Shown one piece after another: positions 22,075-40,875 of a DNA stretch of 64,000 nt. The notes under the pieces are model-generated. The model was not told the DNA's origin, made no database searches, and saw nothing but the letters and a program-made list of their open reading frames with translations. The position numbers and the translations under genes are program-made. The stretch's first letter is position 1, and every line of letters starts with the position of its first letter. The DNA comes from Parcubacteria group bacterium (lineage in GTDB: Bacteria; Patescibacteriota; Minisyncoccia; Phycocordibacterales; UBA2100): NCBI GenBank assembly GCA_943358385.1, contig CALRGX010000003.1, forward strand, positions 2,771 through 66,770. The letters are read 5' to 3'.

Positions 22075-24144
22075 ATGTCTACTATGAAACAGATAATACA
22101 ATTCTTTAAACGCTTTAGTCCTGCGGAGACACTGATCTTCTCGAGCGCCGCACTGTACTTCCTCTTGGAATTTATTGTTGGGAAGTATCTGCTGCCGATT
22201 TTCGGTGGCTCGTGGGCAGTGTGGATCACGGTGCTGTCTTTTTTTACCGTCGCCCTTTTGTTGGGGTATGTGTATGCGCATTGGCTCACCAAGCGAACAG
22301 TTGCGGTACAACAAAAAATGCACCGGACGCTTCTTCTGGTTGCACTCGTGCCTGCGGCGCTCGTAGGTATAGCGATCATGAGTGGAGCGAGCGTGCCTGC
22401 ATACTTCGGCGTCGGCAACTTACCACCAGCTCTGGAAATTATTCTGCTACTCCTCTGCACCGTTGGCATCCCTGCAATCGCCCTAGCTGCCACCAATACC
22501 TTAGTACAGCACTGGAGCTATGAAAACGAAGGCACGTATCGCCTGTACGCACTTTCGAATGCAGGATCATTTGTGGGGCTCCTCAGCTATCCGTTTCTGG
22601 TGGAGCCGCTTTTTTCCGTGCGGGTGCAAGCGGTATTGTGGGTCATCGCATTTGTGTACTTTGTATATGCCATGCGGCACTTCATCCTGCATACCGCGGC
22701 CATAGAAGTGGCAAAAGATGAACATCACACACCCGTTTCAGTCTCACGGCGCCTCACGTGGCTTGGACTCGCCGCATTCCCCGCGCTTCTGATGGTCGCC
22801 ACTACCGCGCAAATCACACACGTCGTTGCCCCTATCCCGCTTCTCTGGATGGTGCCGCTTGGTTTGTATTTGCTTTCATACGTGCTCGCGTTTTCAGGGA
22901 GAGGTGGGGGGAAAGTCGTCATGACGCTCTTCGTTCTCTCTGCAGGAGGGTCGTTGTACCTACTGGACGCGAGCGTGCATGTGTACATGTTGCGCTTGTT
23001 TGTGTACTTGCCGCTTCTTTTCTTTGCATCACTCTCGATTCATGCTCTTTTGTATCGACTACGCCCTCATGGTGGGGCGCTGTCGTCTTTTTATCTGTAT
23101 CTGTCCCTTGGCGGGGCATTGGGCACGCTTTTGGTTTCTTTTGGTGCGCCGATCATTTTCAACGAGCTCTGGGAGTTTCCGCTTGCAGTGTTTGCCGCAT
23201 TTTTGGGAGGCTGTGCGCTCCTCTTGTACAGTGCATCTGCACACCTGTCGTCATGGGTGCCGCGTGTACTCATGGTGGCAGTGGCCTTTGGAGCGGGGCA
23301 GTTTTTCTATGCATTTACGCAGGAATATTTTGGTTTTGAAGGAGTGGAAAGAAATTTCTACGGCATCACCACGGTGGTAGATGGCCCTGACAAAGTGACC
23401 CTGTTGCACGAGCAAACGGTGCATGGCACACAGCTTAAGTTTGATGAGCGCGTACCTACCGCGTACTTTACGCTCCACAGCGCCATTGGAAGAACGTTTG
23501 GCTATCAGCGTGTGGTGGCACACCCCGATCGGCCGCTTTCGGTGGGCGTGATTGGATTGGGCGCAGGCACCATGGCGGCGTACTGTCGACCAGGAGACAC
23601 GTTTGTATATTACGAAATCGACGCACGCATGGAGCGCATTGCGCGCAACGATTTCACCTACCTATCGCACTGCCCCGGGATAGAAGTGCGCATCGGTGAT
23701 GGACGACGCTTGATGGAGCAAGAAGTGGCGGCGGGGCAGACGGGCGTCTACGATGTGCTGATGGTTGATGCATTCAACGACGACAACATTCCTGCACACT
23801 TGGTAACGGTAGAAGCGCTGGATGTCTACGGCAAACTATTGCGCGAGAAAGACAGTATCATCGTTTTTCAAGCATCGAATCGTTACATTGCCCTTGCGCC
23901 TTTGGTTATCGCACTCGCCAAAGAGCGTGGCTATTTCGCGGTAGTGATGGAAGGGGATGTGAGCATGGACACTGCGTCACTCACTTCGCAATACGTGCTT
24001 CTTTCGAAAGATCCGCACGTGTTTAGCCAGAAACTGTTCCTTGAGGCATCGGTGGAGCTGCCGAAGTATTTACCGACTGCATGGACTGATACCTACTCAA
24101 ACATTCTGCCGCTACTCACGCTGCCGAGCCCTTTTCGGGATTAA
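22075..24144 (+). CDS. Membrane-anchored spermidine-synthase-like protein, paralog B
   Basis: Same architecture as A. Three DNA blocks nearly identical to A (22127-22250, 22396-22620, 22770-22912). Confidence 0.75.
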   Translation: MSTMKQIIQFFKRFSPAETLIFSSAALYFLLEFIVGKYLLPIFGGSWAVWITVLSFFTVALLLGYVYAHWLTKRTVAVQQKMHRTLLLVALVPAALVGIAIMSGASVPAYFGVGNLPPALEIILLLLCTVGIPAIALAATNTLVQHWSYENEGTYRLYALSNAGSFVGLLSYPFLVEPLFSVRVQAVLWVIAFVYFVYAMRHFILHTAAIEVAKDEHHTPVSVSRRLTWLGLAAFPALLMVATTAQITHVVAPIPLLWMVPLGLYLLSYVLAFSGRGGGKVVMTLFVLSAGGSLYLLDASVHVYMLRLFVYLPLLFFASLSIHALLYRLRPHGGALSSFYLYLSLGGALGTLLVSFGAPIIFNELWEFPLAVFAAFLGGCALLLYSASAHLSSWVPRVLMVAVAFGAGQFFYAFTQEYFGFEGVERNFYGITTVVDGPDKVTLLHEQTVHGTQLKFDERVPTAYFTLHSAIGRTFGYQRVVAHPDRPLSVGVIGLGAGTMAAYCRPGDTFVYYEIDARMERIARNDFTYLSHCPGIEVRIGDGRRLMEQEVAAGQTGVYDVLMVDAFNDDNIPAHLVTVEALDVYGKLLREKDSIIVFQASNRYIALAPLVIALAKERGYFAVVMEGDVSMDTASLTSQYVLLSKDPHVFSQKLFLEASVELPKYLPTAWTDTYSNILPLLTLPSPFRD

Positions 24145-28356: not shown

Positions 28357-29652
28357 ATGACATTCATACGCTCGATCGTAACGATGATTCTGACCTGGGA
28401 AGCTCGACTGATACTAAAAAAATATACGCCTTTTATTGTGGCGGTGACGGGTAGTGTGGGAAAGACAACGACCAAAGATGCGATTTACACGGTCCTCTCC
28501 AAGGACCGTGACACGCGCAAAAGCGATAAAAGTTTAAATAGTGAGCTCGGTATCCCGCTTACCATCATTGGTGCGGAAAGTGGCTGGTGGAACCCTATTT
28601 CGTGGCTCACCATCATGTGGAAAGGGCTGCTGTTGATTATTCTCCCCACGCGCTATCCAGAGGTGCTGGTTTTGGAAGTAGGGGCAGATCATCCTGGCGA
28701 TGTACGCCGTGCCGCGGTATGGCTCAAGCCGCACATTGCGGTGATCACGGGGATCCCCGAAATTCCTGCACACGTAGAATTTTTTGATTCACCTGATGCG
28801 GTGGTGAAGGAGAAAAAAGAATTAGCGCTGCATGTGCGTTCGGGCGGCTCGGTTATTTTGAATGGCGATGATGAACGTACTCGAGCCATGCATAGTGAGT
28901 TTCGCGCAACCGCGGTGCGCTATGGCCTCACCGCCGGAAACGAATTTACTGCATCACACGAAAGCGTGGTGTATCAGCAAGATGCACCACGAGGGATGCG
29001 TTTTCGTGTGGATCACAGTGGCTCGTCGGTCCCTATTACCATCATGGGTGCCCTAGGGCGCACACATATCCTGCCGTCTTTGGCAGCGTGTGCCGTTGCT
29101 GATGCAATGGGTATCGATCTGGTCGCTGCAGGCGGCGCACTTTTGTCGCATGAGCCAGGGCCAGGCCGTATGCGCGTGATCGAAGGCCTAGGGGGCAGCA
29201 CTATTATCGACGATACCTACAACGCCTCGCCTGCGGCCGTTGCTGCGGCCCTACAGACCCTACACGAGCTGGAAACAGGAGGGCGAAAGATTGCGCTTTT
29301 GGGCGACATGCTTGAATTGGGCAAATACAGTAACGCCGCACACGATGCGGTTGGCGCACAGGCGAGCGGCATTGTTTCTGAATTGGTGACGGTAGGCACT
29401 GAGGCAGCACGTATCGCAGAAAGTGCGCGTAATGCAGGACTCAACCCTGATCGTATTGTGGAATACAAACGAGGTGAATCACTCGCTGCTGGCGAGGCAT
29501 GTGCCAAGCAAATTCGCGAAGGCGATGTCATTTTAGTGAAAGGCTCGCAAGGTATTCGCATGGAGCGTGCGGTAAAGGCATTGATGGCCGAACCGCATCG
29601 GGCAAAAGAATTGCTGGTGCGCCAGAGCGATGAGTGGCTCGCGCTACCGTAG
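28357..29652 (+). CDS. murF: UDP-MurNAc-tripeptide--D-Ala-D-Ala ligase MurF
   Basis: VAVTGSVGKTTTKD P-loop and Mur ligase middle and C-terminal domains. Confidence 0.9.
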   Translation: MTFIRSIVTMILTWEARLILKKYTPFIVAVTGSVGKTTTKDAIYTVLSKDRDTRKSDKSLNSELGIPLTIIGAESGWWNPISWLTIMWKGLLLIILPTRYPEVLVLEVGADHPGDVRRAAVWLKPHIAVITGIPEIPAHVEFFDSPDAVVKEKKELALHVRSGGSVILNGDDERTRAMHSEFRATAVRYGLTAGNEFTASHESVVYQQDAPRGMRFRVDHSGSSVPITIMGALGRTHILPSLAACAVADAMGIDLVAAGGALLSHEPGPGRMRVIEGLGGSTIIDDTYNASPAAVAAALQTLHELETGGRKIALLGDMLELGKYSNAAHDAVGAQASGIVSELVTVGTEAARIAESARNAGLNPDRIVEYKRGESLAAGEACAKQIREGDVILVKGSQGIRMERAVKALMAEPHRAKELLVRQSDEWLALP

Positions 29653-29746
29653 GTCATACGTCTTGACTCACTACGCCTTGTCTTATGGGGGTAGAATATT
29701 TTTTATATCGTAACAGTCGTGCGCGTACAAATATAAGGAACACCAT

Positions 29747-30022
29747 ATGAGCAACCTACACAACACGGGCCCGTCACTTTTCGCGAGCGAAGCAGAGGCA
29801 CTTCTGGCACCTGGGAAAATCGTTCGGCATTATAAAGGCGGCATCTACCGCATTATCGACGAACACGTGCGTCACAGTGAGACGCTGGAAGAAGGCGTGC
29901 TCTACGAGCATCTGTGGCCCAACAAGCATGGGTTTTGGTTTCGACCTGTAGCCATGTTCTGGGGGAATGTAGAGCCAGAGAAGGGTGGTGGGCCGCGATT
30001 TACCGTTGTAGATAGGGAATAG
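29747..30022 (+). CDS. DUF1653-like small protein
   Basis: YKGGIYRIIDEHVRHSETLEEGVLYEHLWPN pattern matching the DUF1653 family. Confidence 0.55.
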   Translation: MSNLHNTGPSLFASEAEALLAPGKIVRHYKGGIYRIIDEHVRHSETLEEGVLYEHLWPNKHGFWFRPVAMFWGNVEPEKGGGPRFTVVDRE

Positions 30023-30062
30023 GGACAAGGGTTTAGGGATTAGCGTATAGAAAGGATAAGCA
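30003..30062 (+). repeat. Purine-rich intergenic repeat (family member A)
   Basis: agggacaagggtttagggattagcgtatagaaaggataagcaggaaga. Confidence 0.55.
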
Positions 30063-30079
30063 GGAAGACAAAAAAAGAA

Positions 30080-30104
30080 GAGGCCGGCGCATAGCGCCGG
30101 CCTC
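30080..30104 (-). terminator. Rho-independent terminator for the minus-strand two-gene unit
   Basis: gaggccggcgc-ata-gcgccggcctc, with tttttttct on the minus strand after the stem. Confidence 0.7.
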
Positions 30105-30125
30105 GATGCCTCTCTGGTGCTCACA

Positions 30126-30236
30126 CTAGCCATGGATAATCCACGGGAGTGCGATGATGGCCGAAAGTGCGAGCGCAAGCGCGATACCGAGTGCAATACC
30201 CCAGTATCCGAGCTTGTGCGTGCCTTCGTAGATCAT
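30126..30236 (-). CDS. Small hydrophobic peptide (36 aa: MIYEGTHKLGYWGIALGIALALALSAIIALPWIIHG)
   Basis: AAGGAGAG RBS 6 nt before the ATG. One TM helix. Terminator directly downstream. Too short for the ORF track. Confidence 0.4.
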   Translation of the reverse strand: MIYEGTHKLGYWGIALGIALALALSAIIALPWIIHG

Positions 30237-30253
30237 ATGTCTCTCCTTCGTTG

Positions 30254-30634
30254 CTACTTCTTTCGCTTCTTGGTTCTTTTGCCTTTGTTGCTGCCCTTGC
30301 GCTCACTTTTGGGTGGGGGCGGTGTAGGCAGATTTTCCGTGACTTGTCCCAACTCAACACTCAGTGAATCAAGTGCGTCGACTGCAGCTTCTACCCGGGC
30401 CATTGCTTCGTCTTGGAATACTTCCCATGTAGTGTTGAGTTGTACACGCAGTGCAGCAATCTGACTCGGGTCAGCTTTCACACGTTCGAGTTGCGTGAGG
30501 AACTGCTCGAGTGCGTGGTGCAATTGGGCACCGTCGTTGTTCAGAACGTGAGACGCGAGCTTCAATTCCGTGAGTAAGCGAGCAATACTTCCTGCAAGCT
30601 CGGCAAATCGCCGCTTGGTGATTTCGTCGGGCAT
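30254..30634 (-). CDS. Hypothetical coiled-coil protein with a Lys-rich C-terminal tail
   Basis: ORF with Met start MPDEITKRRF. Ends in KGSNKGKRTKKRKK. Confidence 0.4.
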   Translation of the reverse strand: MPDEITKRRFAELAGSIARLLTELKLASHVLNNDGAQLHHALEQFLTQLERVKADPSQIAALRVQLNTTWEVFQDEAMARVEAAVDALDSLSVELGQVTENLPTPPPPKSERKGSNKGKRTKKRKK

Positions 30635-30834
30635 AAGAGCCTCCCTATGCTTCAGCTGCCATGTTTCTATCACAGTATATCCATCCTCCAAAGGTACCCA
30701 AGTGGTAGGGGAACACTTTTGCATCGCGGCATAAAAAATCGTATGATATCGGGGCTTTGGCAGGGCGTGTGTTCTACTATGCTTTGCCTCAGCATCTGTC
30801 CTGGGTTTAGTGTCTGGTTTGTATTTGGGGCAGC

Positions 30835-30878
30835 GGCGCTATACCCTAAAACCTAAACCCTACTCCCTTGGCTTTCAT
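30835..30878 (-). repeat. Purine-rich intergenic repeat, partial (family member D, minus orientation)
   Basis: Reverse complement reads ccaagggagtagggtttaggttttagggtatagcg. Confidence 0.5.
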
Positions 30879-30950
30879 GGCCCTATCGTCTAGCGGCTAG
30901 GACACGGCCTTCTCAAGGCTGTAACCGGGGTTCGATTCCCCGTAGGGTCA
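30879..30950 (+). tRNA. tRNA-Glu (anticodon CTC)
   Basis: Cloverleaf with acceptor GGCCCTA/TAGGGTC, D-arm GTCT-AGCGGCTA-GGAC, anticodon loop TTCTCAA and T-arm CGGGG-TTCGATT-CCCCG. Resembles E. coli tRNA-Glu. Confidence 0.85.
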
Positions 30951-32476
30951 CATTCAGAAACTTGGTCGGAAGTAAGCGCGAAATCTGGGCGCGCCGAAGG
31001 CGCGCTGTATGGCGAGGGAATGAAATCCGTCTTGCGGGCGCGGGCGAATTCGGAGGGCGGGCAAAATGAGATCGAAATAGTTTTGTCTTTTAGCGCGGGG
31101 TTCGTTCCGAAGGAACGCAGAAAATCTCGCATTTCGTGGAGATTTTCACTGGTTGCCAGAAACCCCGCGCGTTTTGAATCCAAAATCCACTTCCGCAGGG
31201 GTTCGACCCAATTCTTTCTCTCGGCTCGGGCAGATGAAGATTTTGCTTGAAGCGAGCTCCTTTGACGCATGAGCGCGTCCTTTTTCGTTAGATATATGTC
31301 GCGCTCAATATCGTGGTTTAAGTACAAATCCACGAGTGCGTCGAGCTTCGCTTCAAGCGTTTTCAAATCTTCCTTCATCTGCCCGAGCCGATTTCCCGAA
31401 GCGTGAATTTCGTCATGCTCAAAAACCTCTACTTTTTTGAGCATATAATTTGCCCACGCTTCGGGAAGCGACACTGTTTGAAGCTGTTCCTTTACTTGGA
31501 GAGCGAGCGCATCTTCCTGCAAATATCCTTGACCACATTTTCCTTTCTTTTTCGTACAACGATAATAGCGATACCGACCGCCCATTTTTCCAGTACACCA
31601 TTGAGCAGTTATCATCGAGCCACATTCCCCACAACGAAAAAGTCCGGTGAAAGGAAAATTGTGAGATATTTTGCTATGCCTCGGATGCGCTCGCACGAGA
31701 AGTTGTTTCTGCACAGCTTCAAACAGTGTCGGAGAAAGAATTGGCGCAAAGCTTCCGGGAAAATATTCCTCACGATGCTTGGTAAATCCCAAGTATGCAC
31801 GATTCGTCAAGATCCTTTTCACGGAAGCTTTGCCAAGGGGCGTTCCGGACTTTTGAGCAACACCGTGGTCAGCCAAAAATTGCGACAACGAAATGAGGGT
31901 ATGTGTTCCTTTTACATACTCGCCAAACGCGCGCACAATAATTTTAGATTTCACCGGATTAGGTTCGATATTTCGTGTGGTGGGGTTGTTCACATACCCG
32001 AATGGAGCGCGGGTTAGCCATTCTCCGCGTCGCAATTTTTGGCGCATACCTCGCTCAACATTTTGCTTCAAATTGTCGGAATAATATTTGCTCTGTCCGA
32101 ACGCCACTTGAAGCATAAATAGCCCCTGCGGAGTGGGTTCAAACCAAAATGTCGGAAAACGCAAAGAGATGATTTTTGAAGTGTCTACGGCGTAAATGAT
32201 GCGTCCTCCGTCAATACTATTTCTCGCTAGTCGGTCAGGATGCCATGCGAGGATGCCAACATTGCCTAACTTATCAATTTTGAGCATCATTTCGCCGAAC
32301 ACTTCTCGTCCCGGACTCTTTGCGCTTTTCGACTCTTGAAATTCCTCAAGAATTTCAAGATTTTCTCTGCTCGCAAATTCACGAAGTTCCACAAGTTGAG
32401 CTGGAATACTCATCACTTGCTTATCGTCATCTTCGGTGCTCTTGCGAGCATAGAGAAAATATTTTGGTTTGTTCAT
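30890..32476 (-). CDS. Large serine recombinase (resolvase catalytic domain, recombinase domain, zinc-ribbon, coiled-coil)
   Basis: YARKSTEDDDKQVMSIPAQ with catalytic Ser, and a DRLAR motif. CGECGS...YYRCTKKKGKCGQGY zinc ribbon. The last ~57 codons are encoded by IR-A plus the antisense of tRNA-Glu. Confidence 0.85.
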   Translation of the reverse strand: MNKPKYFLYARKSTEDDDKQVMSIPAQLVELREFASRENLEILEEFQESKSAKSPGREVFGEMMLKIDKLGNVGILAWHPDRLARNSIDGGRIIYAVDTSKIISLRFPTFWFEPTPQGLFMLQVAFGQSKYYSDNLKQNVERGMRQKLRRGEWLTRAPFGYVNNPTTRNIEPNPVKSKIIVRAFGEYVKGTHTLISLSQFLADHGVAQKSGTPLGKASVKRILTNRAYLGFTKHREEYFPGSFAPILSPTLFEAVQKQLLVRAHPRHSKISHNFPFTGLFRCGECGSMITAQWCTGKMGGRYRYYRCTKKKGKCGQGYLQEDALALQVKEQLQTVSLPEAWANYMLKKVEVFEHDEIHASGNRLGQMKEDLKTLEAKLDALVDLYLNHDIERDIYLTKKDALMRQRSSLQAKSSSARAERKNWVEPLRKWILDSKRAGFLATSENLHEMRDFLRSFGTNPALKDKTISISFCPPSEFARARKTDFIPSPYSAPSARPDFALTSDQVSECDPTGNRTPVTALRRPCPSR

Positions 32477-32646
32477 AAATAGTTTTTGGATTCAAAAAAA
32501 GAAACTATTAAGATCTCATTTCTTGCTTTCCGCCCGCCCTCCGAATTCGCCCGCGCCCGCAAGACGGATTTCATTCCCTCGCCATACAGCGCGCCTTCGG
32601 CGCGCCCAGATTTCGCGCTTACTTCCGACCAAGTTTCTGAATGTGA
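30948..32646 (-). mobile_element. Large serine recombinase gene bounded by perfect 115-bp inverted repeats (IR-A), abutting the tRNA-Glu 3' end
   Basis: 30948-31062 is the exact reverse complement of 32532-32646. The left IR starts in the last 3 nt of tRNA-Glu. Confidence 0.8.
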
Positions 32647-32866
32647 TCTAATCATATCCTTTGCGCGAACCTTTTTCGAGAGCTAATCGCACGCTCCGCG
32701 TGCGTGGTGGCTTTAGACCAATGCGTACGCTCCGATTGCGTGGTGACTCTCACAATCCGACCAGCGCCTCGCGGACTCGGCGCTCCGCCCTCGCCCCGTT
32801 CCGCCTTTCCATACTTATTTTTTCGCGGGGGGGGATTTTTTTAAAATTGAATGGGCGGAAACGGGG
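32644..32866 (+). repeat. IR-B left copy (223 bp)
   Basis: Reverse complement of 38872-39092. Internal ~22-bp subrepeats (acgctccg..tgcgtggtg x2). G8 and T7 homopolymer tracts (the right copy has C6 and A7). Confidence 0.85.
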
Positions 32867-32872
32867 CGAGGG

Positions 32873-33298
32873 CTACGAACGTAACTTCTTATAAAGAACA
32901 AATCCTATAAACATAGCCGCACCTCCTATCACGAGATGTGGCGTGTTAAGAACCAATCTCGTAAACATATCTGCAACTGGCTCTGTATCAAAATGAAAAA
33001 GATTGAGATTGAGGTATGCTTTACCAGCAAAAACTCCCACGACACCGTCAAGGAAATAAGCTGTCCCAAATGCTCTAAAATAGAACAAGGCGGCGCCACG
33101 AGAATACCACGCTGCAAGTGCAGCCCAGATTCCGGAGAGGATATGCAGATTGTTTGCTATGGGTTCAAGTTTGAAAAAGCCGAATATCAAGCCGTTTTCC
33201 GCAATAATGAAAGGCATGTAATTCATTGCAGCCAAAAAAGTAAACATAGCTGTAAATAACCACGCCAAATTTTGAACTGTAAAATATTTATAGACCAT
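32873..33298 (-). CDS. Small polytopic membrane protein (141 aa), DUF4383-like guess
   Basis: Four predicted TM helices. First gene inside the IR-B cassette. Confidence 0.4.
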   Translation of the reverse strand: MVYKYFTVQNLAWLFTAMFTFLAAMNYMPFIIAENGLIFGFFKLEPIANNLHILSGIWAALAAWYSRGAALFYFRAFGTAYFLDGVVGVFAGKAYLNLNLFHFDTEPVADMFTRLVLNTPHLVIGGAAMFIGFVLYKKLRS

Positions 33299-33359
33299 GA
33301 GGGTGTCGCTAGTTATTAGTAAAATGTATTATAATAATAGCACAGCTTAAATACGTCCT

Positions 33360-34964
33360 GTGGCAAAACTACGATCACACTTGAAACCGAAAATCTCAAG
33401 CATCCTGCTTGTCTTTTTTGCGCTTCTCGCCTTGATTCTTGGAAAGAAAACATACGATCTCGCCGCCGCGCCGAAAAATGAGAGAGATTGCAATTTTGTC
33501 TATCCGTATACGACCGATAAAACAACGATTGAAATACGATATTCCGGTTTGGATGAATCAGGACTCGAAGTGCTTCAAAAGGGCGGGACGATCAATGATG
33601 CGAGCTGTCTCAATAAAACGAATGTATATGCGATTGTGCAGGTCAGGAGCGAGGACGATATCGAGGCCGCGCTCCAATTCGCCCGTGAGCATGATCTCAA
33701 AGTCACTCCTGCAGGTGAGCATCACAGTATGGGCGGACAGAGTTTCTCCCGCGGTGGTCTCGTGCTCGACATGCGAGAGTTTGACCAGATAAAGGTAGAC
33801 AAAGCAAACAAGATACTCAATGTACAAAGCGGCGCGTCATGGAAAGAAGTACAGGCAGTGCTTGATCCGTTGGGACTTGCGGTAAAGGCGATGCAATCCA
33901 TCAACATCTTCACAGTGGGAGGAACGCTAAGCGTCAATGCTCACGGCATTGTGCATGATCCGGGACAGATCGCCCCGACGGTGCGTCAGATTCGAGTCAT
34001 GTTGAGTTCCGGAGAAATTAAAACTGCAAGCCCCACCATAAATCCTGAATTGTTTAGCGCTGTGCTCGGCGGCTACGGCCTCTCCGGCATTATTCTCGAT
34101 GTTGATCTTGATATCGTTGACAACGAGTCATATGCGTGGAAGACGGAATACATGGATTTCAAAGATTTTCCCGAATATTATCGGAACGAGATTATCGGGA
34201 ACGACGACGTCGGACTTTTTTATGCGCGACTCTCGATTGCGCCGGGCTCTTATCTCACAGAGACGGCAATTCATCGGTATGAAAAACTTGATTTTGAGAT
34301 GGAGCCGGAGCCGCTACGGGGTGCATCAAAAGTTTGGATAAAGCGTCTTATCTTCAATATTTCAAAAACCGGAGGACTTGGCCGATGGATGCGCTGGACT
34401 ACCGAAAAATATCTTGAGCCGGGCGTGCATACCTGTATCTCCCGCAACCAAGCGATTGCGACTGGCCATGAGGAGGAGATTTGTGTGGCAAGTCGAAACA
34501 ACAAAATGAATCAATCAATGGAATACCTTGACGTCCGACAGAAAGATACCAACATCCTGCACGAATACTTTATCCCTCTTGAAAACTCGGTAGCGTTTAT
34601 CGAGGGATTGAAAAAAGTAGTAAGGGAGGATGACGTAAATCTTTTGAATGTGACCCTGCGCATCGTCACGAAGGATACGATTACCGCGCTGCCATACGCA
34701 AAAGACGACCGCATCGCATTCGTGCTTTACTTCAATCAAAAATTGAACGAAAAGGACAGCAAGAAATTGGAGAAAGCGACCGTGGACTTGATTGATCTCG
34801 CTGTTGCAAACGGAGGAACATATTATCTCCCGTATCAACTCTATTACTCAAAAGAACAGTTGCGCGCAGCGTATCCCGAAATAGACCGCTTCTTTGGACT
34901 GAAGCACAGATATGACCCGATTGGTTTATTCTCTAACTCCTTTTACGAAAAGTACGGCGACTGA
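33360..34964 (+). CDS. FAD-linked oxidoreductase (FAD_binding_4 / vanillyl-alcohol-oxidase or DprE1-like fold) with N-terminal TM anchor
   Basis: LKVTPAGEHHSMGGQSFSRGGLVLDM FAD-binding (PCMH) motif. 534 aa. N-terminal TM. Confidence 0.7.
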   Translation: MAKLRSHLKPKISSILLVFFALLALILGKKTYDLAAAPKNERDCNFVYPYTTDKTTIEIRYSGLDESGLEVLQKGGTINDASCLNKTNVYAIVQVRSEDDIEAALQFAREHDLKVTPAGEHHSMGGQSFSRGGLVLDMREFDQIKVDKANKILNVQSGASWKEVQAVLDPLGLAVKAMQSINIFTVGGTLSVNAHGIVHDPGQIAPTVRQIRVMLSSGEIKTASPTINPELFSAVLGGYGLSGIILDVDLDIVDNESYAWKTEYMDFKDFPEYYRNEIIGNDDVGLFYARLSIAPGSYLTETAIHRYEKLDFEMEPEPLRGASKVWIKRLIFNISKTGGLGRWMRWTTEKYLEPGVHTCISRNQAIATGHEEEICVASRNNKMNQSMEYLDVRQKDTNILHEYFIPLENSVAFIEGLKKVVREDDVNLLNVTLRIVTKDTITALPYAKDDRIAFVLYFNQKLNEKDSKKLEKATVDLIDLAVANGGTYYLPYQLYYSKEQLRAAYPEIDRFFGLKHRYDPIGLFSNSFYEKYGD

Positions 34965-35891
34965 TTAGCGGTGTTCATACTTATCCCGCATCTTCTTCGC
35001 AAGTGGTGGTTCGTCCGTGACGAGGCCGTATGAATTCTTGCGAAGCGCGAAGTCAACCGACGTTTCGTCGTTGACCGACCAGAGAAACACCGGGTATCCC
35101 TTCGCAAGGAGTTTATCGATCACGGCTTCATCAACTTGATACTGAATACTGACCGCATCGGGCTTTACAAGTTTTCTAATCAGAGTCCGCGTCCACTCCG
35201 TTTGTAAGTACCACGGCAATGTAACTCGGTCTTCTTCCTTCGTTTCCGCAATCCGTTTCGGATCCCACCCTGTATCCATGAATATGAAAACCGTCTTGAT
35301 GCGCGGATCCATTTTTTTGAGGCGATGCAGGACAACCGGATTGAACGAACTTATATACACCCGCTCATACGCATTATGTTTTGCTAGTACCTCGTTCACG
35401 CGCCGCTCGATGCCTGTATCCGACGCGGCGGGCACTTTCAACTCAACCATCAGGTATGCATCGGGTGTTATCTCCTTGACAAAATCCTCGAACGTCTTGA
35501 TGTATACGCCAGAAAATCCGTTCCCATACTTTGTTCCGAGATCATACGTTTGCAGTTCTGTAAGCGTCTTTGCATCAATGCGGCCTTCGCCCGTTGTAAA
35601 CCGCTCAAGGGACACGTCATGGAAAATCACCACTTCTTCATCCTGCGAGAATTGAGCATCAACATCTACACCGTCAAACCCTTGTGCAACGGCAATTCGC
35701 GCTCCCTCCAAGCTGTTGTCAGGCGCATGATTACCAAAACCGCGATGTGCAAACACCAATATTTGTTCGTCAGTTGAAATTAAGCCTTTGTATTTTGGCT
35801 CGTATAAAAACAGGTACGCTGGAAGTGCAACGACCACCAAGACAATAACCGAGGTGTATTTGAATATTTTTCCTTTTGCGAAAGTGGGCAT
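34965..35891 (-). CDS. Glycerophosphodiester phosphodiesterase family protein, membrane-anchored
   Basis: HRGFGNHAPDNSLEG and FDGVDVDAQFSQDEEVVIFHD GDPD catalytic motifs. Confidence 0.75.
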   Translation of the reverse strand: MPTFAKGKIFKYTSVIVLVVVALPAYLFLYEPKYKGLISTDEQILVFAHRGFGNHAPDNSLEGARIAVAQGFDGVDVDAQFSQDEEVVIFHDVSLERFTTGEGRIDAKTLTELQTYDLGTKYGNGFSGVYIKTFEDFVKEITPDAYLMVELKVPAASDTGIERRVNEVLAKHNAYERVYISSFNPVVLHRLKKMDPRIKTVFIFMDTGWDPKRIAETKEEDRVTLPWYLQTEWTRTLIRKLVKPDAVSIQYQVDEAVIDKLLAKGYPVFLWSVNDETSVDFALRKNSYGLVTDEPPLAKKMRDKYEHR

Positions 35892-35940
35892 ATTCTCCTA
35901 TATCAAGATATACTAACAGTATACTTCCTTTCACAAACGA

Positions 35941-36828
35941 ATGACATTCTCTGCTTTCAAAAAACATAAGGTGGTGCGCTTGATTGCGCGAGTGGCTATC
36001 GGTACAGTCGTACTTTTCGCAATTCTTGTGTTATCACTTCTGTTGTTTCGCGAGCCTTCAAACGATAGGGATTGGGCGTTTGATCAGTCAATATTGCCGT
36101 ATGCAATTTTTGACGGCGACATAGTGACGATAAAAAATATCCGCAACTTCTCCTATGCGTCGCGCAACGAATATGCGCCAAACTATTACGACAAGACGTT
36201 TGATTTACGAACGATAGAATCAGTGGATTATATTGTTGAGCCACTTGCCAGCATCGCCGCCGCGCACACGTTTTTGAGTTTCGGCTTTAAGAATGGCGAT
36301 CATGTTGCCATCTCCATTGAAATACGAAAAGAAAAGGGCGAGGAATTTTCCCCGTTCCGAGCACTCGTCAACGAGTACGAGATCATGTATGTCATCGTTG
36401 ATGAGCGCGACACTATACAACTCCGTGCTATACATCGGGACAACCCTGTTTATCTCTATTCTGCCAAAGTATCGCCTGATAAGATAAGACCGCTATTCGT
36501 TGATATACTGGAGCGAGCAAACAAGCTGAAAGAGAAGCCGGAATTTTACAACACTCTTACAAACACCTGCGCAACGAACATTGCAGACCATATCAACAAT
36601 ATCTCGCCTGGACGCATCTCGTTTGATTGGCGAATTTTGCTTCCACTTGATTCCGATCAATTTGCCTACGAACTTGGATTGATTGACAACTCACTGCCGT
36701 TTGAGGAAGTACGCCAGAAACATCTTATAAACGATTTTATAAAAGAGTACGCAGACGACCCCGACTTTTCCGTCAAGATACGCGAAGCGCAACAGCGCTC
36801 GCTCGCTAATACCGACTCATCCCAGTAA
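35941..36828 (+). CDS. DUF4105-like (Lnb N-terminal-domain-like) protein
   Basis: N-terminal TM. YNTLTNTCATN motif resembling the DUF4105 signature. Confidence 0.5.
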   Translation: MTFSAFKKHKVVRLIARVAIGTVVLFAILVLSLLLFREPSNDRDWAFDQSILPYAIFDGDIVTIKNIRNFSYASRNEYAPNYYDKTFDLRTIESVDYIVEPLASIAAAHTFLSFGFKNGDHVAISIEIRKEKGEEFSPFRALVNEYEIMYVIVDERDTIQLRAIHRDNPVYLYSAKVSPDKIRPLFVDILERANKLKEKPEFYNTLTNTCATNIADHINNISPGRISFDWRILLPLDSDQFAYELGLIDNSLPFEEVRQKHLINDFIKEYADDPDFSVKIREAQQRSLANTDSSQ

Positions 36829-38371
36829 ATTCTCCAAAACGATACCAAAGTGTCTTGCCGATGCTTGTGCCGGCGTACGTCTCGTAATCTGTCGAGTAGG
36901 TCTTGCCCTCTGTATTGTTCCAGCTCGCGTTAAAGAACGCCATCGCATCGTTGATTGCCCTAACTCCAGCATCACCGGAGACAAGGACGTTCGTTTCCAG
37001 ATTAAGATTGTCGAGATTGCGCCTCGTGAGGTTTGCCGAGCCTTGAATAATTGAATTCGCACCGTTTTTCTTGAAAATGAGTAATTTACTATGACACTGC
37101 TCGCCGTGCGTATCGCACCAGCGAATCGTAGTATTGCCGTTCGTGTACTCTGCAAGTTCATGCGCGACTTGTCGGTTCGGAATTCCGTTTTTCTCTCTGC
37201 CGAAAGCGTCTTTATTCGGATCAAGTAAAAGGCGTATTTTCACACCACGTTCGTCCGCTTGCTTGAGTGCTCGCACGATGTCACGATCTGAAAGATAGAA
37301 CATCGCCATATCAAATTCATCGTTGCTCCCAAGTTCTGCTAACAGTTCAAGTATCTTCTTCTCGATTGCTCGCTCTGTGAGTAGTTGTACGCGCACATCA
37401 CCATTCCGGTCATTAATCGTGTCGAGAATATGCTTAGATGGTTCTATAAAGTTTGCATCAGAAAAACGAGCTACTACGCGTTCGCTTCGAAGCACATCTT
37501 GCCACAAATTGTCATCAACTCGTATTGCTGTATTACTATGTGCGCTTGAGCCATCGTGAGGGTTGGCGGAGGTTATGAGTACCGAAAAGCCGCTGGTTCT
37601 TTCTCTTGCATCGTCCGTCATGAGCACCTTTCGATGGTTTGCTTTGAAGTTGAACGAATTGAGATACGAGACGATGTTTATGTTTGGTTTTCGAGCATCA
37701 AGCGCGTTTGGTACTATGTCGCCAAGTCCTTGATCCGGTAGCCACCTAAAAAATGTTCTCCACAAAGCACTAAATACAGGATTGCTGTCACGAAGCGGAA
37801 TGAGATTTGTTGTTATGACGGAAATACCCGCGCGCTCCAAATCTTTGAAGTGATCGGGGGTGTATCCTCCGTACATTGAGTTGATAGGGTCGGTAATCAC
37901 TTGGATAACGATGTCCGGTTTTTGTGTTTTCTTTTCAATCAGTAGGTCGGTGAGTTCCTTAGAGAGTTGTCGGTGCGACGTAGTCGCAGTTCCTAAAAAG
38001 TCGCTGAAAAAAAACATGTCGAGCAGGATATATGTCTCGGCATTTTTGATCATACGAAACGCCTCGTCAAATATCTGCTGGTCGGAATGTCGTACACCGC
38101 CTTTGTCGATGTACGTTCGGTCACTAAAAAAATCTATACTCGAATTCGGAACAGTGTACGATTGACTTTCGAGCGTTAAACCGTTTGGGAGCGGTTTGTA
38201 TGCTCCGTATAATCCTACAATGGCGACGAGAGCAACGACTCCAAAAATTATTTTTCTTATCACATAGATATTGTACCGCAGAAGCAGTTCTGATTTTAGG
38301 GAGTCCCGCCCGCGACCCCTTCCGCCCTTCGCGGGCGGGATGTGCGCGCACTGGGTGGGAGGGGCAAGCAC
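36806..38371 (-). CDS. Phospholipase D family protein / cardiolipin-synthase-like (two HKD motifs), membrane-anchored
   Basis: HRKVLMTD...SANPHDGS and HSKLLIF...GSANLTRRNL HxK(x)4D motifs. N-terminal TM. The first ~30 codons overlap a GC hairpin, so the true start may be downstream. Confidence 0.75.
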   Translation of the reverse strand: MLAPPTQCAHIPPAKGGRGRGRDSLKSELLLRYNIYVIRKIIFGVVALVAIVGLYGAYKPLPNGLTLESQSYTVPNSSIDFFSDRTYIDKGGVRHSDQQIFDEAFRMIKNAETYILLDMFFFSDFLGTATTSHRQLSKELTDLLIEKKTQKPDIVIQVITDPINSMYGGYTPDHFKDLERAGISVITTNLIPLRDSNPVFSALWRTFFRWLPDQGLGDIVPNALDARKPNINIVSYLNSFNFKANHRKVLMTDDARERTSGFSVLITSANPHDGSSAHSNTAIRVDDNLWQDVLRSERVVARFSDANFIEPSKHILDTINDRNGDVRVQLLTERAIEKKILELLAELGSNDEFDMAMFYLSDRDIVRALKQADERGVKIRLLLDPNKDAFGREKNGIPNRQVAHELAEYTNGNTTIRWCDTHGEQCHSKLLIFKKNGANSIIQGSANLTRRNLDNLNLETNVLVSGDAGVRAINDAMAFFNASWNNTEGKTYSTDYETYAGTSIGKTLWYRFGEFTGMSRY

Positions 38372-38871
38372 ATACGGCTTCGCGCCTCGGACATTTCCGC
38401 TAGGGCGTCCACGCCCTTGGATGAGCGCCGCCGTAATCTTGCAATACAGAAATTCGAAGCGGAAGCGACACCACGAACGCTATTTTGAAAACGAGAAGGG
38501 GGTTGTGCGAGGGAGGACTCCGAAGGCACAAACAACGAAGGCAAAGACATAGGTAAACTACTAACTAAAATAAAGCACTGAATACTCTAGCAAACCACTG
38601 CGAGGAGGAGACCGAAGCTGGGGGGAGGATTCCTTCCTACCCCCAAACAGCATGGCGCCCGAGCACCCGCTCCGCAGAGCGGGAGTGCGAGGAGAAGCGC
38701 CAAACCTAGACATCTAGGCGCGAGTAGCCCTAGCGGAAATGTTCCGAGGCGGATGCCGAGGATGGACTCCATGGGCTGGACGAACCACTAGCGATAAAAA
38801 ATGACACGAGGCTCAATATTGAATTTGCATTTTCTTCCGACTGCTTCTTCCTTAGAAGAAGCCCGGCCGAG

Positions 38872-39092
38872 CCCCGTTTCCGCCCATTCAATTTTAAAAA
38901 AATCCCCCCGCGAAAAAATAAGTATGGAAAGGCGGAACGGGGCGAGGGCGGAGCGCCGAGTCCGCGAGGCGTTGGTCGGATTGTGAGAGTCACCACGCAA
39001 TCGGAGCGTACGCATTGGTCTAAAGCCACCACGCACGCGGAGCGTGCGATTAGCTCTCGAAAAAGGTTCGCGCAAAGGATATGATTAGATCA
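38872..39092 (-). repeat. IR-B right copy (221 bp)
   Basis: Reverse complement of 32644-32866 except for homopolymer tract lengths. Confidence 0.85.
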
Positions 39093-39308
39093 CCAGTGTG
39101 GAGACAAGATTCGATTCGGAGTGGTTTTCTTTGGCGGCTGCCAAAGAAAACCACTGATTCTGGGCGATGCCGCGCGCTGCGCGCGAGTCTTGAGCCTCCT
39201 TTCGGGTGGATACCAGAAGCGTCACGCGGAGAGCATTGTAAAAATCGCTGCACGGATCAAAAGCTCTTGCGTTATAACGCGCACTTTTGGGCGCTTACTA
39301 CGGAAAGT

Positions 39309-39608
39309 ATGTGGCTAGGTATTCATGCAGAGGTTGCCTATCGTGCGCCGCTGTATCGCTGCACACATTGTTGGGTCGAGGAAAGCCATATGCACCGCGT
39401 CACGATTACTCGATGCGCAGATGTGGGAGAACTGTGTCAGAAGTATGACCTTTCTGCCAAGGACATATATATCCGTCTCAGCGATGTGGTGAAGGGGTGG
39501 CTTGCGGAAGCGCGCCAGCGTGCCGCTACTGCAGAGGCAGTTGCTGGTGCCGTCGCCCGTGAGGAAAGCGTGCTGTGGACGCTGTATGCCAACCATCCAC
39601 GCGACTGA
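39309..39608 (+). CDS. Hypothetical protein (99 aa) with Cys/His cluster
   Basis: ORF with ATG at 39309 and a YRCTHCW..H.H cluster. No recognised family. Confidence 0.3.
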   Translation: MWLGIHAEVAYRAPLYRCTHCWVEESHMHRVTITRCADVGELCQKYDLSAKDIYIRLSDVVKGWLAEARQRAATAEAVAGAVAREESVLWTLYANHPRD

Positions 39609-39667
39609 ATGAGCGCAGCCCCCAACCTTGTTGGGGGCTGCTTTGGTTATGGTATTATGGACGGTAT

Positions 39668-40027
39668 ATGGCAGGAGAAGGCCCAAAAAAGAGAAAGCCT
39701 GGATTTGGCAAGCGTGGGGTTTCGCCAGCTGCACCAAAAGACATGCTTAAAGAAACACGTGAATCAGGCGCCAGTGCGTTCTCCTTCGAAGAGATCATGC
39801 ATTTTGTGGCTAATACGGATGACCATTTTAAAGCCCCACCTGGCGCACGAGTGGAGGGTCTGGCTTTTGCGCCACTGCGCGATAACCTCCTTAAAATAGG
39901 TGGCATGCTGGCGCAGATTCGACACATTGATAACGACCCAACTGCACACGGCGAGAAAAAAGAGCGGGATATTAAGTCGCTTGTGGATCACATCAATCGC
40001 ACATTGCGTCTCGGTTCTACTCAGTAA
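39668..40027 (+). CDS. Hypothetical basic N-terminal protein (119 aa)
   Basis: ATG at 39668 (MAGEGPKKRKPGFGKRG). Confidence 0.35.
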   Translation: MAGEGPKKRKPGFGKRGVSPAAPKDMLKETRESGASAFSFEEIMHFVANTDDHFKAPPGARVEGLAFAPLRDNLLKIGGMLAQIRHIDNDPTAHGEKKERDIKSLVDHINRTLRLGSTQ

Positions 40028-40875
40028 TCACAGAGCACGGCATCGTATCCCAGTGCTGTAGAGAGCACTGCTTTTGCGGTGGCGCGATTGCCCATCATAT
40101 CGACGAGGCCTTCATTCAAGGCGAGTGCGCCAGGGAGCGCCGAGCCATCAGCGAGGCGCACTACTTTTTCACGTTCCATCGAGCGTGATTTTGCTACCAA
40201 GTCTACAAAGTGTTCGTGCCATGCAGCCATATCGCGCTCGAAGAGTGCTCGCTCTTCTGCGGTGAGTGGTTTGTTTGGATTGCCCGAGTCTTTAAACTTT
40301 CCGGATGCAAGGGAAACAAATTCGAGACCTTCTTTGGTGTTTTGCCCGACTGTTTGCAGGTACGAGCTGGTGATGCCAATCGAGCCAACATCTGAAAATG
40401 GCGAAGCGATGATGGTGTCGGCACCCATTGCTGCCATGTATGCGCCCGAGGTACCTGCTTCGCGGATCAATGCCACGGAAGGTTTCGTTAGTTCGTTCAT
40501 CGCATCCAGAATCACCTCTGACGCGACGGGTGTGCCGCCATAGGAATCAATCTGGAGCATGACGGCAGACACATTTGGATCTTGTTCGGCGTTGTGCAAC
40601 AGGCTCACTATGAAATCAGCGTCGGTGTAGGGAAGTGATGCGCCACCTTCATCAGTAGGGCCGAGCGCAGCATAGGGATTCCCAAAAAGAATATCGCCAC
40701 TGAGAGGTACGACGACGGTATTACACACGCCGTCCGAGAGCCATGGACTGTACGGAAAGGTGCGCGCGTCGTTCCATAATCCATACATGTTGAGACCCAT
40801 TTTAAAAACAATGAGCGCGGCGACGCTCCAGAGGAGAGGTTTACCAACCAGCTTTACTATTTTTTCAGTAGGCAT
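40021..40875 (-). CDS. sppA: Signal peptide peptidase SppA (S49 family, 36K type)
   Basis: DSYGGTPVASE and GAYMAAMGADTI S49 motifs. N-terminal TM. Confidence 0.85.
   Translation of the reverse strand: MPTEKIVKLVGKPLLWSVAALIVFKMGLNMYGLWNDARTFPYSPWLSDGVCNTVVVPLSGDILFGNPYAALGPTDEGGASLPYTDADFIVSLLHNAEQDPNVSAVMLQIDSYGGTPVASEVILDAMNELTKPSVALIREAGTSGAYMAAMGADTIIASPFSDVGSIGITSSYLQTVGQNTKEGLEFVSLASGKFKDSGNPNKPLTAEERALFERDMAAWHEHFVDLVAKSRSMEREKVVRLADGSALPGALALNEGLVDMMGNRATAKAVLSTALGYDAVLCDY

Follow-up and report, generated by a model that had tools for sequence, protein, structure and literature searches.

The stretch of DNA analysed here (hereafter, the window) comprises 64,000 nucleotides of contig CALRGX010000003.1 from a Parcubacteria group bacterium. 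Bases 30948-39093 of the window very probably constitute a single 8,142-bp integrative element, that is, a small genomic island inserted by a serine recombinase at the 3′ end of a tRNA-Glu(CTC) gene (Table 1). The insertion would in all likelihood have taken place by conservative site-specific recombination at a TCAC core, carried out by the large serine recombinase that the element itself encodes. In sibling assemblies of the same species the site is empty, and base 30951 is joined to base 39090 through one TCAC (an overlap of 4 nt). Four independent contigs, from three further assemblies and one Logan/ENA data set, show this state (GCA_943354405.1, GCA_964924975.1, ERZ27280191, and ERZ27280192), with a flank identity of 99.8-100%. 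They were found via exact-protein look-ups of the small flanking genes, and the occupied form is present in other samples of the same series; an exact 24-mer spanning the predicted bacterial attachment site (attB) gave no match in the JGI metagenomes. There is no target-site duplication: the only repeated bases are those of the TCAC core, already in the empty site. The 8,142 bp correspond to the recombinase segment plus a cargo cassette, which are present or absent together, and no same-species contig carries the recombinase segment without the cassette or the reverse. A sequence-only reading of the window had proposed a 6.2-kb lipid-remodelling cassette, bounded by the inverted repeat (IR) pair IR-B, as a recombinase-associated and possibly mobile unit. 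That the cassette is recombinase-associated, horizontally acquired, and mobile is supported: the occupancy polymorphism, full versus empty site, which that reading had named as decisive, is documented by the four contigs. The cassette is not a unit of its own, however, but travels with the recombinase segment as one insertion at tRNA-Glu; in the same way, IR-B does not mark cassette-specific ends but is half of an attachment region whose other half is the second repeat pair, IR-A.

The three junctions of the element are built around the common TCAC with swapped flanks. The sequence is ...CCCCGTAGGG-TCAC-ATTCAGAAAC... at the tRNA/A′ junction (attL), ...GATTAGA-TCAC-ATTCAGAAAC... at the B′/A′ junction in the middle (on the other strand), and ...GATTAGA-TCAC-CAGTGTGG... 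at the B′/host junction (attR). From this exchange of flanks an empty site ...GTAGGG-TCAC-CAGTGTGG... was predicted, and the prediction held. Judged by their sequences, the tRNA/A′ junction corresponds to attL, the B′/Y junction (Y, host flank) to attR, and the B′/A′ junction to an attP-like site that is intact and inverted. IR-A and IR-B are the two halves of one ~337-bp attachment region, which is present twice, one copy being split by integration. The intact B′/A′ copy (~337 bp) is inverted and separates the recombinase gene from the cargo. In attL, the last 4 nt of tRNA-Glu (TCAC, 30948-30951) serve as the crossover core.

Within the B arm, the motif AAGTTCGCGCAAAGG is conserved at 16 nt from the core, and the GGTTCG contained in it begins 19 nt out. 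The consensus of the internal junction, obtained from 68 loci of the family described below, is TTcgAAAtAAGTTCGcGCAAAGG.TAg.Att.CatCAC|Aaa.aGAaACTTC. The distance from GGTTCG to the core is 13-14 nt in the tRNA T-arm and 19-20 nt in the B arm, a shift of 6 bp seen in the left halves only. For the Listeria integrase, the zinc-ribbon motif has been located 5 bp nearer the center in attB than in attP (PMC3783163). The 6-bp shift is consistent with this zinc-ribbon attB/attP rule, with GGTTCG as a putative protein contact. A mirrored GTTCGCGC motif in the A arm of the window lies at an asymmetric distance and is not conserved, and it was given no weight.

Table 1. Features of the integrative element and its target site (window coordinates).
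Feature	Position	Strand	Basis
tRNA-Glu(CTC), integration target	30879..30951	+	ARAGORN; Rfam tRNA 58 bits; empty-site left flank ends 30951
Large serine recombinase, 528 aa	30890..32476	-	Pfam, translation, conservation profile
IR-A distal arm (A′), P′-type half; attL with tRNA end	30948..31062	.	Repeat finder, junction comparison
IR-A proximal arm (A), 55 nt upstream of recombinase start codon	32532..32646	.	Repeat finder
Core GTGA = TCAC of the intact inverted attP-like B′/A′ junction	32643..32646	.	Junction comparison; 68-locus consensus
IR-B proximal arm (B)	32643..32867	.	Repeat finder
Promoter-like site TCGAAA-17 nt-TATGAT, toward recombinase gene across core	32651..32679	-	Sigma-70-type match; position conserved; function inferred
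Small membrane protein, weak DUF4383 match	32873..33298	-	Pfam
FAD-linked oxidase, FAD_binding_4 + ALO	33360..34964	+	Pfam, NCBIfam
Glycerophosphodiester phosphodiesterase family protein	34965..35891	-	Pfam, NCBIfam
Lnb_N (former DUF4105) domain protein	35941..36828	+	Pfam
PLD-superfamily protein (PLDc_2), N-terminal membrane helix	36806..38371	-	Pfam; NCBIfam PLD superfamily sub-threshold
ESR, conserved structured non-coding element, ~410 nt, candidate RNA	38361..38770	+	Fold, homologues, covariation
IR-B distal arm (B′); attR with flank from 39094; core TCAC 39090-39093	38871..39093	.	Repeat finder, empty site
Second promoter-like copy, outward into host DNA	39057..39085	+	Sequence match

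The recombinase contains the domains Resolvase (PF00239, 3e-19), Recombinase (PF07508, 2.7e-11), and Zn_ribbon_recom (PF13408, 1e-11), all above the gathering thresholds, as well as the N-terminal motif YARKST. These three domains, the precise insertion into the empty site, and the hybrid attL and attR, a pattern also found at 10 of 11 other loci, are those of an integrase element. The SPbeta integrase is a distant match in the PDB (E = 6e-8), and the best NCBIfam model is CcrB, which scores below its cut-off (E = 6e-20); the nearest named relatives (SCC Ccr, XisF, and the SPbeta integrase) are all distant. Identity reaches at most 27% to phage-encoded and at most 28% to plasmid-encoded enzymes. 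With these values, no close IMG/VR relatives, and no phage genes in the cargo, a prophage or plasmid origin was discarded. The open reading frame (ORF) of the recombinase continues across A′ and past the core and terminates antisense to the tRNA gene (...CDPTGNRTP...): A′ encodes approximately the last 38 in-element codons, and the last ~20 residues are antisense tRNA. According to the conservation profile, no family member has a stop within the A arm, and a conserved FCPPxEF lies inside it. Because the frame is open past the core, the C-terminal tail of the protein depends on the sequence beyond the core; on excision, it would become ...CDLIISFARTFFES. Two weaker inverted matches (31064-31091/32494-32521 and 31172-31192/32477-32497, 82-86%) lengthen the complementarity between the 5′ leader of the recombinase gene, up to the start codon, and its 3′ coding part, and a full-length mRNA could form a long 5′-3′ duplex.

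The element is not an isolated case. A scan of one genome per species yielded at least 578 loci encoding recombinase relatives, of which 80 were fetched (these and further metagenome loci are labeled L), all of them in Patescibacteria metagenome-assembled genomes (MAGs). At nearly all of the 80 loci, inverted arms of 115-131 nt (mostly 98-100% identical) lie on both sides of the recombinase gene, and 3-4 nt of the distal arm belong to the 3′ end of a tRNA gene. In this survey, the insertions are always at tRNA 3′ ends, mostly of Glu-CTC or Glu-TTC and also of Ser, Ile, Ala, Arg, Gly, Pro, Leu, and Val tRNAs (nine types); a tRNA-Gln target with the same layout is found in L118. Where the flank suffices, the proximal A arm is adjoined by a second repeat pair (140-273 nt, 96-100% identical) with 1.8-8.9 kb inside it. 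Such a pair has been observed at at least 12 loci (L013, L020, L021, L032, L033, L052, L054, L061, L067, L074, L080, and L082), including a closed 0.99-Mb chromosome (L054, CP060229.1); many other loci stop a few hundred bases upstream of the recombinase because the repeats break the assemblies. Junction triplets at 11 other loci have cores of 0-6 nt, and in 10 of them 3-6 nt are in common, for example CCGC(A) at tRNA-Ser. The metagenome contig L147, whose recombinase is 34% identical to that of the window, has the order tRNA-Glu, a, recombinase, a′b′, cargo, structured element, b, and host. The elements form a large, apparently undescribed family in Patescibacteria, whose members retain a second, inverted attachment site as a spare. 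No description of the architecture in Patescibacteria or the candidate phyla radiation was found in the literature searched; as far as the conserved architecture is concerned, the earlier remark about an undescribed kind of module seems justified.

The recombinase clades seem to be target-specific, each with its own tRNA, and the cargo proteins are unrelated between elements. Other members carry, for instance, an AAA_15 ATPase, methyltransferases, a beta-helix/PKD surface protein, an rve transposase, or a two-methylase restriction-modification set with a LexA-fused methylase. Compared with the arms of elements encoding recombinases of 90-97% protein identity, the A arms of the window are only 73-90% identical; arms that are near-identical within elements and divergent between them point to concerted evolution. 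A minority of arm pairs, 77-95% identical, may be old, inactive copies. Several loci show additional arrangements. L048 contains two recombinase-type repeat-flanked units in one contig (9043-10747 and 18770-20422), which indicates that a genome can hold several elements; the second unit abuts a tRNA-Ser (ACT anticodon as called), and no tRNA was called by the first. In L040, an element at tRNA-Ser(CGA) has a tRNA-Glu(TTC) gene (1693-1775) at a distance of 250 nt, and the end of this gene, ...GGTAGGGTCA|TGAG..., is unoccupied. In L018 (11714-14429 and 15251-15405), a second tRNA-Ser(GCT) beside an element at tRNA-Ser(ACT) is followed by a 206-212-nt inverted-repeat pair around 2.2 kb with no recombinase inside, and then by a copy of the 5′ block of the structured element; this repeat-bounded segment may be a non-autonomous or decayed element.

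That the window holds two elements, namely an insertion sequence (IS)-like recombinase unit with 115-nt repeats beside a separate cargo cassette mobilised in trans, is quite improbable. Only the full and empty states are seen in the species, the junction in the middle is precisely B′/A′ and shares its core with the two outer ones, the abutment of A and B is kept down to 34% recombinase identity, and a segment between two inverted sites cannot be excised by them. The observations that speak for two elements come from other loci: L018, with the segment lacking a recombinase, and L004 and L005, whose recombinase units are 93-94% DNA-identical to that of the window, have almost no B arm, and lie in unrelated neighboring DNA. 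The combination of such an identity with unrelated flanks points to recent transfer between hosts. An IS or composite transposon was rejected: there is no transposase in the window's element (Pfam), no target duplication beyond the core, and the insertions are always at tRNA 3′ ends.

The cassette had also been considered possibly invertible. Inversion of both segments has indeed occurred within the family, in which the sites are inverted and have their core in common. In L017 and L075 (both assembled with k larger than the arm length), as well as in L156 and L178, the recombinase has the opposite orientation relative to the tRNA, reading away from it or having its 3′ end by the internal junction, and in L042 and L110 the structured element lies by the proximal and not the distal arm. 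These alternative orientations occur between different elements and not within the element of the window, whose sole polymorphism is the presence or absence of the whole 8.1 kb. No inverted cassette was found in any assembly carrying it (look-ups of the PLD, recombinase, and DUF4383 proteins), and the order is the same in all contigs crossing the repeats. Given that both B arms have the same sequence, inversion leaves the neighbors of the cargo unchanged and alters no promoter-gene or coding junction inside it, so that a phase-variable switch is not indicated. About 95% of the loci show one recombinase orientation, not the approximately even mix of a frequent switch. Orientation is, however, weakly determined across perfect repeats of more than 200 nt in short-read assemblies, and frequent switching is for this reason treated as unproven. 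Together with the enzyme being large and integrase-type (528 aa) and not a small invertase, these observations make it quite improbable that the locus is a pair of invertible segments, shufflon-like or Hin/Gin-like, in which the recombinase flips the 1.47-kb and 6.0-kb parts to vary envelope-gene expression.

The repeats themselves have been measured in detail. The repeat finder gives IR-A as 30948-31062/32532-32646 (115 nt, 100% complementary) and IR-B as 32643-32840/38896-39093 (198 nt, 98%), the latter extending as 32820-32867/38871-38918 to a total length of ~225 nt in the proximal and 223 nt in the distal arm. Repeats this long and identical cannot have arisen by chance. IR-B had been noticed as an inverted pair flanking the cassette, which agrees with the repeat finder, and several of its details needed amendment. 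The arms were said to differ only in homopolymers: in the global alignment the G8 versus G6 run is real, but the T7/A7 tracts are equal and there is also one G/A substitution. IR-A and IR-B overlap by 4 nt (GTGA = TCAC) and not by 3 nt. Two direct subrepeats are present in each IR-B as described, not of ~22 bp but of 34 nt at 76% (32679-32712 and 32715-32748), and both hold a CACGC..GCGTG-type palindrome. The internal stem also exists (~32787-32805 with 32854-32873); it reaches 6 nt past the proximal arm, and therefore the stem of the distal copy is shorter. The G-run of the proximal arm (32823-32830, in the loop of this stem) has 8 residues in the window, 9 in GCA_943354395.1, and 10 in an ENA contig, while that of the distal arm has 6 in both covering assemblies (the window and GCA_943354395.1); these differences reflect either slippage or homopolymer sequencing error. 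Two coding candidates in the arms were discarded, namely a small protein in the B arm (77-100-aa ORFs, Arg-rich and of low complexity) and a 60-aa upstream ORF across the A arm, which is unconserved in other loci. Rfam has no family for the arms or the structured element (no match with E <= 1 over 29500-40500).

It is important to note that repeats of this kind can mislead assemblers, as illustrated by L140, L142, and L149. These palindromic metagenome contigs, with the order recombinase-arms-cargo-arms-recombinase, are artefacts produced by the repeats and a caution for the automated annotation of the family. Nonetheless, the probability that the repeats of the window arose as an assembly artefact, or that they are an old fixed duplication that no longer has a function, is practically nil. 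The same arrangement is found in independent assemblies made with different assemblers (MEGAHIT, SPAdes, and others) and in the closed chromosome, which argues against an artefact, and arm pairs of 77-95% identity are not obtainable from a collapsed repeat. The window is virtually identical to the MAG contig GCA_943354395.1, and a Logan contig consists of the unique cassette plus ~30 nt of each B arm; its ending inside each arm indicates a true two-copy repeat. Passive duplication is contradicted by the concerted evolution of the arms, usually 98-100% identical within an element and diverged between elements, and a fixed duplication by the occupancy polymorphism.

A second conserved component of the family is the structured element ESR, a candidate for a new large non-coding RNA as judged by covariation. 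Between the PLD gene and the distal B arm lies 0.5 kb of non-coding, G+C-rich sequence with a fold z of -4.8. ESR lies just inside the distal arm, pointing toward it, and is composed of a long closing helix and several internal helices with compensatory changes. Approximately half of the complete elements have a homologue at the corresponding position. ESR is present just inside a B arm of many elements (L032:4550-4922, L067:5715-6156, L042:229-597, and L108-L187), also with recombinases only 34-45% identical to that of the window, and is absent from elements with another B-arm type. A two-block ESR pattern occurs in more than 120 metagenome contigs, with the match near the contig end in most of them. 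In 44 non-redundant sequences, pairing is kept in 91.4% of the cells versus 34-47% with slid partners, and double changes affect 34 pairs versus 18-25 with sliding; values this high did not occur in any of 500 shuffles. The plus strand of the window is indicated by 262 G-U pairs versus 88 A-C mismatches. ESR has no match in Rfam, in which a chance 17-nt hit (E = 8) was the only one over 38300-39100. A role as guide or bridge RNA was rejected, since the longest exact matches of ESR to the attachment sites of its own element (7-9 nt) do not exceed those to the sites of other elements (7-11 nt).

The mechanism of insertion is that of a serine-integrase island. Elements such as phiC31, Bxb1, A118/LI, SPbeta, and the clostridial skin element share with the element of the window the three recombinase domains, the precise insertion with few shared core bases and no target duplication, the position of the integrase gene next to an attachment site, and, putatively, a binding motif closer to the core in attB than in attP. 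They have, however, one ~50-bp attP that is destroyed on integration, whereas here a second, intact, inverted copy is kept, the repeated region has 337 bp, the recombinase gene lies between two arms, and no directionality factor is seen. The SCC elements of staphylococci and enterococci (Ccr) are likewise small cargo islands with a large serine recombinase that insert at the 3′ end of an RNA-related gene; their target is rlmH and they have short direct and inverted end repeats, with no internal copy of the attachment site and no tRNA target. In the Hin/Gin/Cin systems, the serine recombinase gene also lies in or beside a segment bounded by inverted crossover sites, but these are small invertases (~190 aa, with a C-terminal helix-turn-helix) with 26-bp sites, an enhancer, and expression switching, and they show no presence/absence polymorphism and no tRNA target. 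In the yeast 2-micron plasmid, FLP, a tyrosine recombinase acting on FRT, serves the copy-number amplification of a replicating plasmid. If the circle discussed below exists, it would resemble this plasmid in having two long inverted repeats with a crossover site and the recombinase in one unique segment; in contrast to 2-micron, the window's element has no replication gene, its circle is unobserved, and its enzyme integrates into the chromosome. Other small cargo elements of streamlined genomes are the tycheposons of Prochlorococcus, which also have variable cargo and integrase clades that each target a particular tRNA gene (bioRxiv 10.1101/2020.12.28.424599). They use mainly tyrosine recombinases and direct partial-tRNA repeats, and no inverted duplication is reported for them (bioRxiv 10.1101/2020.12.28.424599). 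The element of the window, with a serine recombinase and only 4 nt of the tRNA repeated, is not a tycheposon. What these systems are not known to have is the retained inverted attachment region, the long homogenised arms across a large clade, and the associated structured element.

The B arm also contains a promoter-like site at a fixed position. Scores of at least 9/12 against the sigma-70 consensus are reached at 35% of the loci versus 9% of the shuffles. After integration, transcription of the recombinase gene could start from the internal copy, with the A arm as the 5′ leader. The distal copy would fire into host DNA, where the small ORFs 39390-39608 and 39668-40027 lie downstream. Recombinase bound at its own site would repress its own gene, resulting in auto-regulation.

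Several observations do not fit easily with an ordinary serine-integrase island. The attachment sites lack clear dyad symmetry, the host half of attB is not conserved between species, and the right junction of L013 is without the common core. The arms, 115-270 nt long and near-identical, are unaccounted for, as canonical serine-integrase sites have ~50 bp. L004 and L005 keep 36 nt and 11 nt of B-like sequence, respectively, with no distal arm within 10 kb, so a recombinase unit is not obligatorily tied to one particular B arm and cargo. Neither an excised circle nor a circular contig (no direct terminal overlap) was found among the loci fetched, and no gene of the element is an evident candidate for a recombination directionality factor. 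The promoter call rests on the sigma-70 consensus, and the same bases may be mere recombinase contacts.

The free form of the element would be a circle in which two inverted 337-bp repeats divide the 1.47-kb recombinase segment from the cargo segment. It is conceivable, and on balance rather unlikely, that both the inverted duplication of the attachment region and the structured element have evolved to serve a route of mobilisation undescribed for serine-integrase elements. One version of this route would be a flip-flop circle similar to 2-micron. In another, the element would transit as single-stranded DNA taken up by naturally competent, nucleotide-scavenging bacteria; A′ would pair with A and B with B′, rebuilding a double-stranded attachment site and possibly a priming structure, and the 410-nt element could act as an RNA or single-stranded-DNA cofactor or as an origin. 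If true, such a route would make the family, with its hundreds of members, a new class of mobile elements, and ESR a new large structured nucleic acid.

The cargo of the window's element consists of five genes, and their earlier assignments hold at the Pfam level (DUF4383, FAD_binding_4 + ALO, GDPD, Lnb_N, and PLDc_2). The FAD-linked oxidase resembles DprE1 and sugar-lactone oxidases, though only below the curated NCBIfam cut-offs, and the GDPD protein has a sub-threshold NCBIfam match (GDPD or lysoPG-PLD-like). The phospholipase D (PLD) protein had been described as having two HKD motifs; one full HxKx4D motif is present, while the second is degenerate (HSKLLIFK). Its GTG start at 38371 is probably too far upstream, given the overlap with the structured element. 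The segment is AT-richer than its surroundings, as had been noted by eye, with a G+C content of 45.5-47.8% per 1-kb window over 31-38 kb versus ~50-55% in the flanks (cargo 46.7%, flanks 52.6%). The lipid theme, which had been taken as the nature of the module, is incidental to the mechanism, since related elements hold other cargo; the lipid genes are one interchangeable payload. With the activities predicted for them, they would plausibly be adaptive for an organism that scavenges lipids.

The genomes of Patescibacteria are tiny, their lipids and nucleotides have to come from hosts, and their ways of exchanging genes are poorly understood. The present family is widespread in them, with at least 578 loci in species-representative genomes and many more in metagenomes, and provides a concrete vehicle for gene exchange that has defined attachment sites at tRNA 3′ ends and moves defence systems and surface proteins. 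The phospholipid-processing cargo of the window could matter for lipid scavenging. For recombinase biology, the family offers a clade of large serine recombinases whose identity to phage or plasmid enzymes does not exceed 28%, and for which attP/attB pairs can be read off at no fewer than nine tRNA targets.

Apart from the element, the window contains three direct repeat blocks of 145-215 nt (19973-20749 versus 22133-22912; 94-99% identical). The blocks are common to two adjacent large genes (732 and 689 aa) without Pfam domains, which look like recent paralogues or the result of gene conversion.

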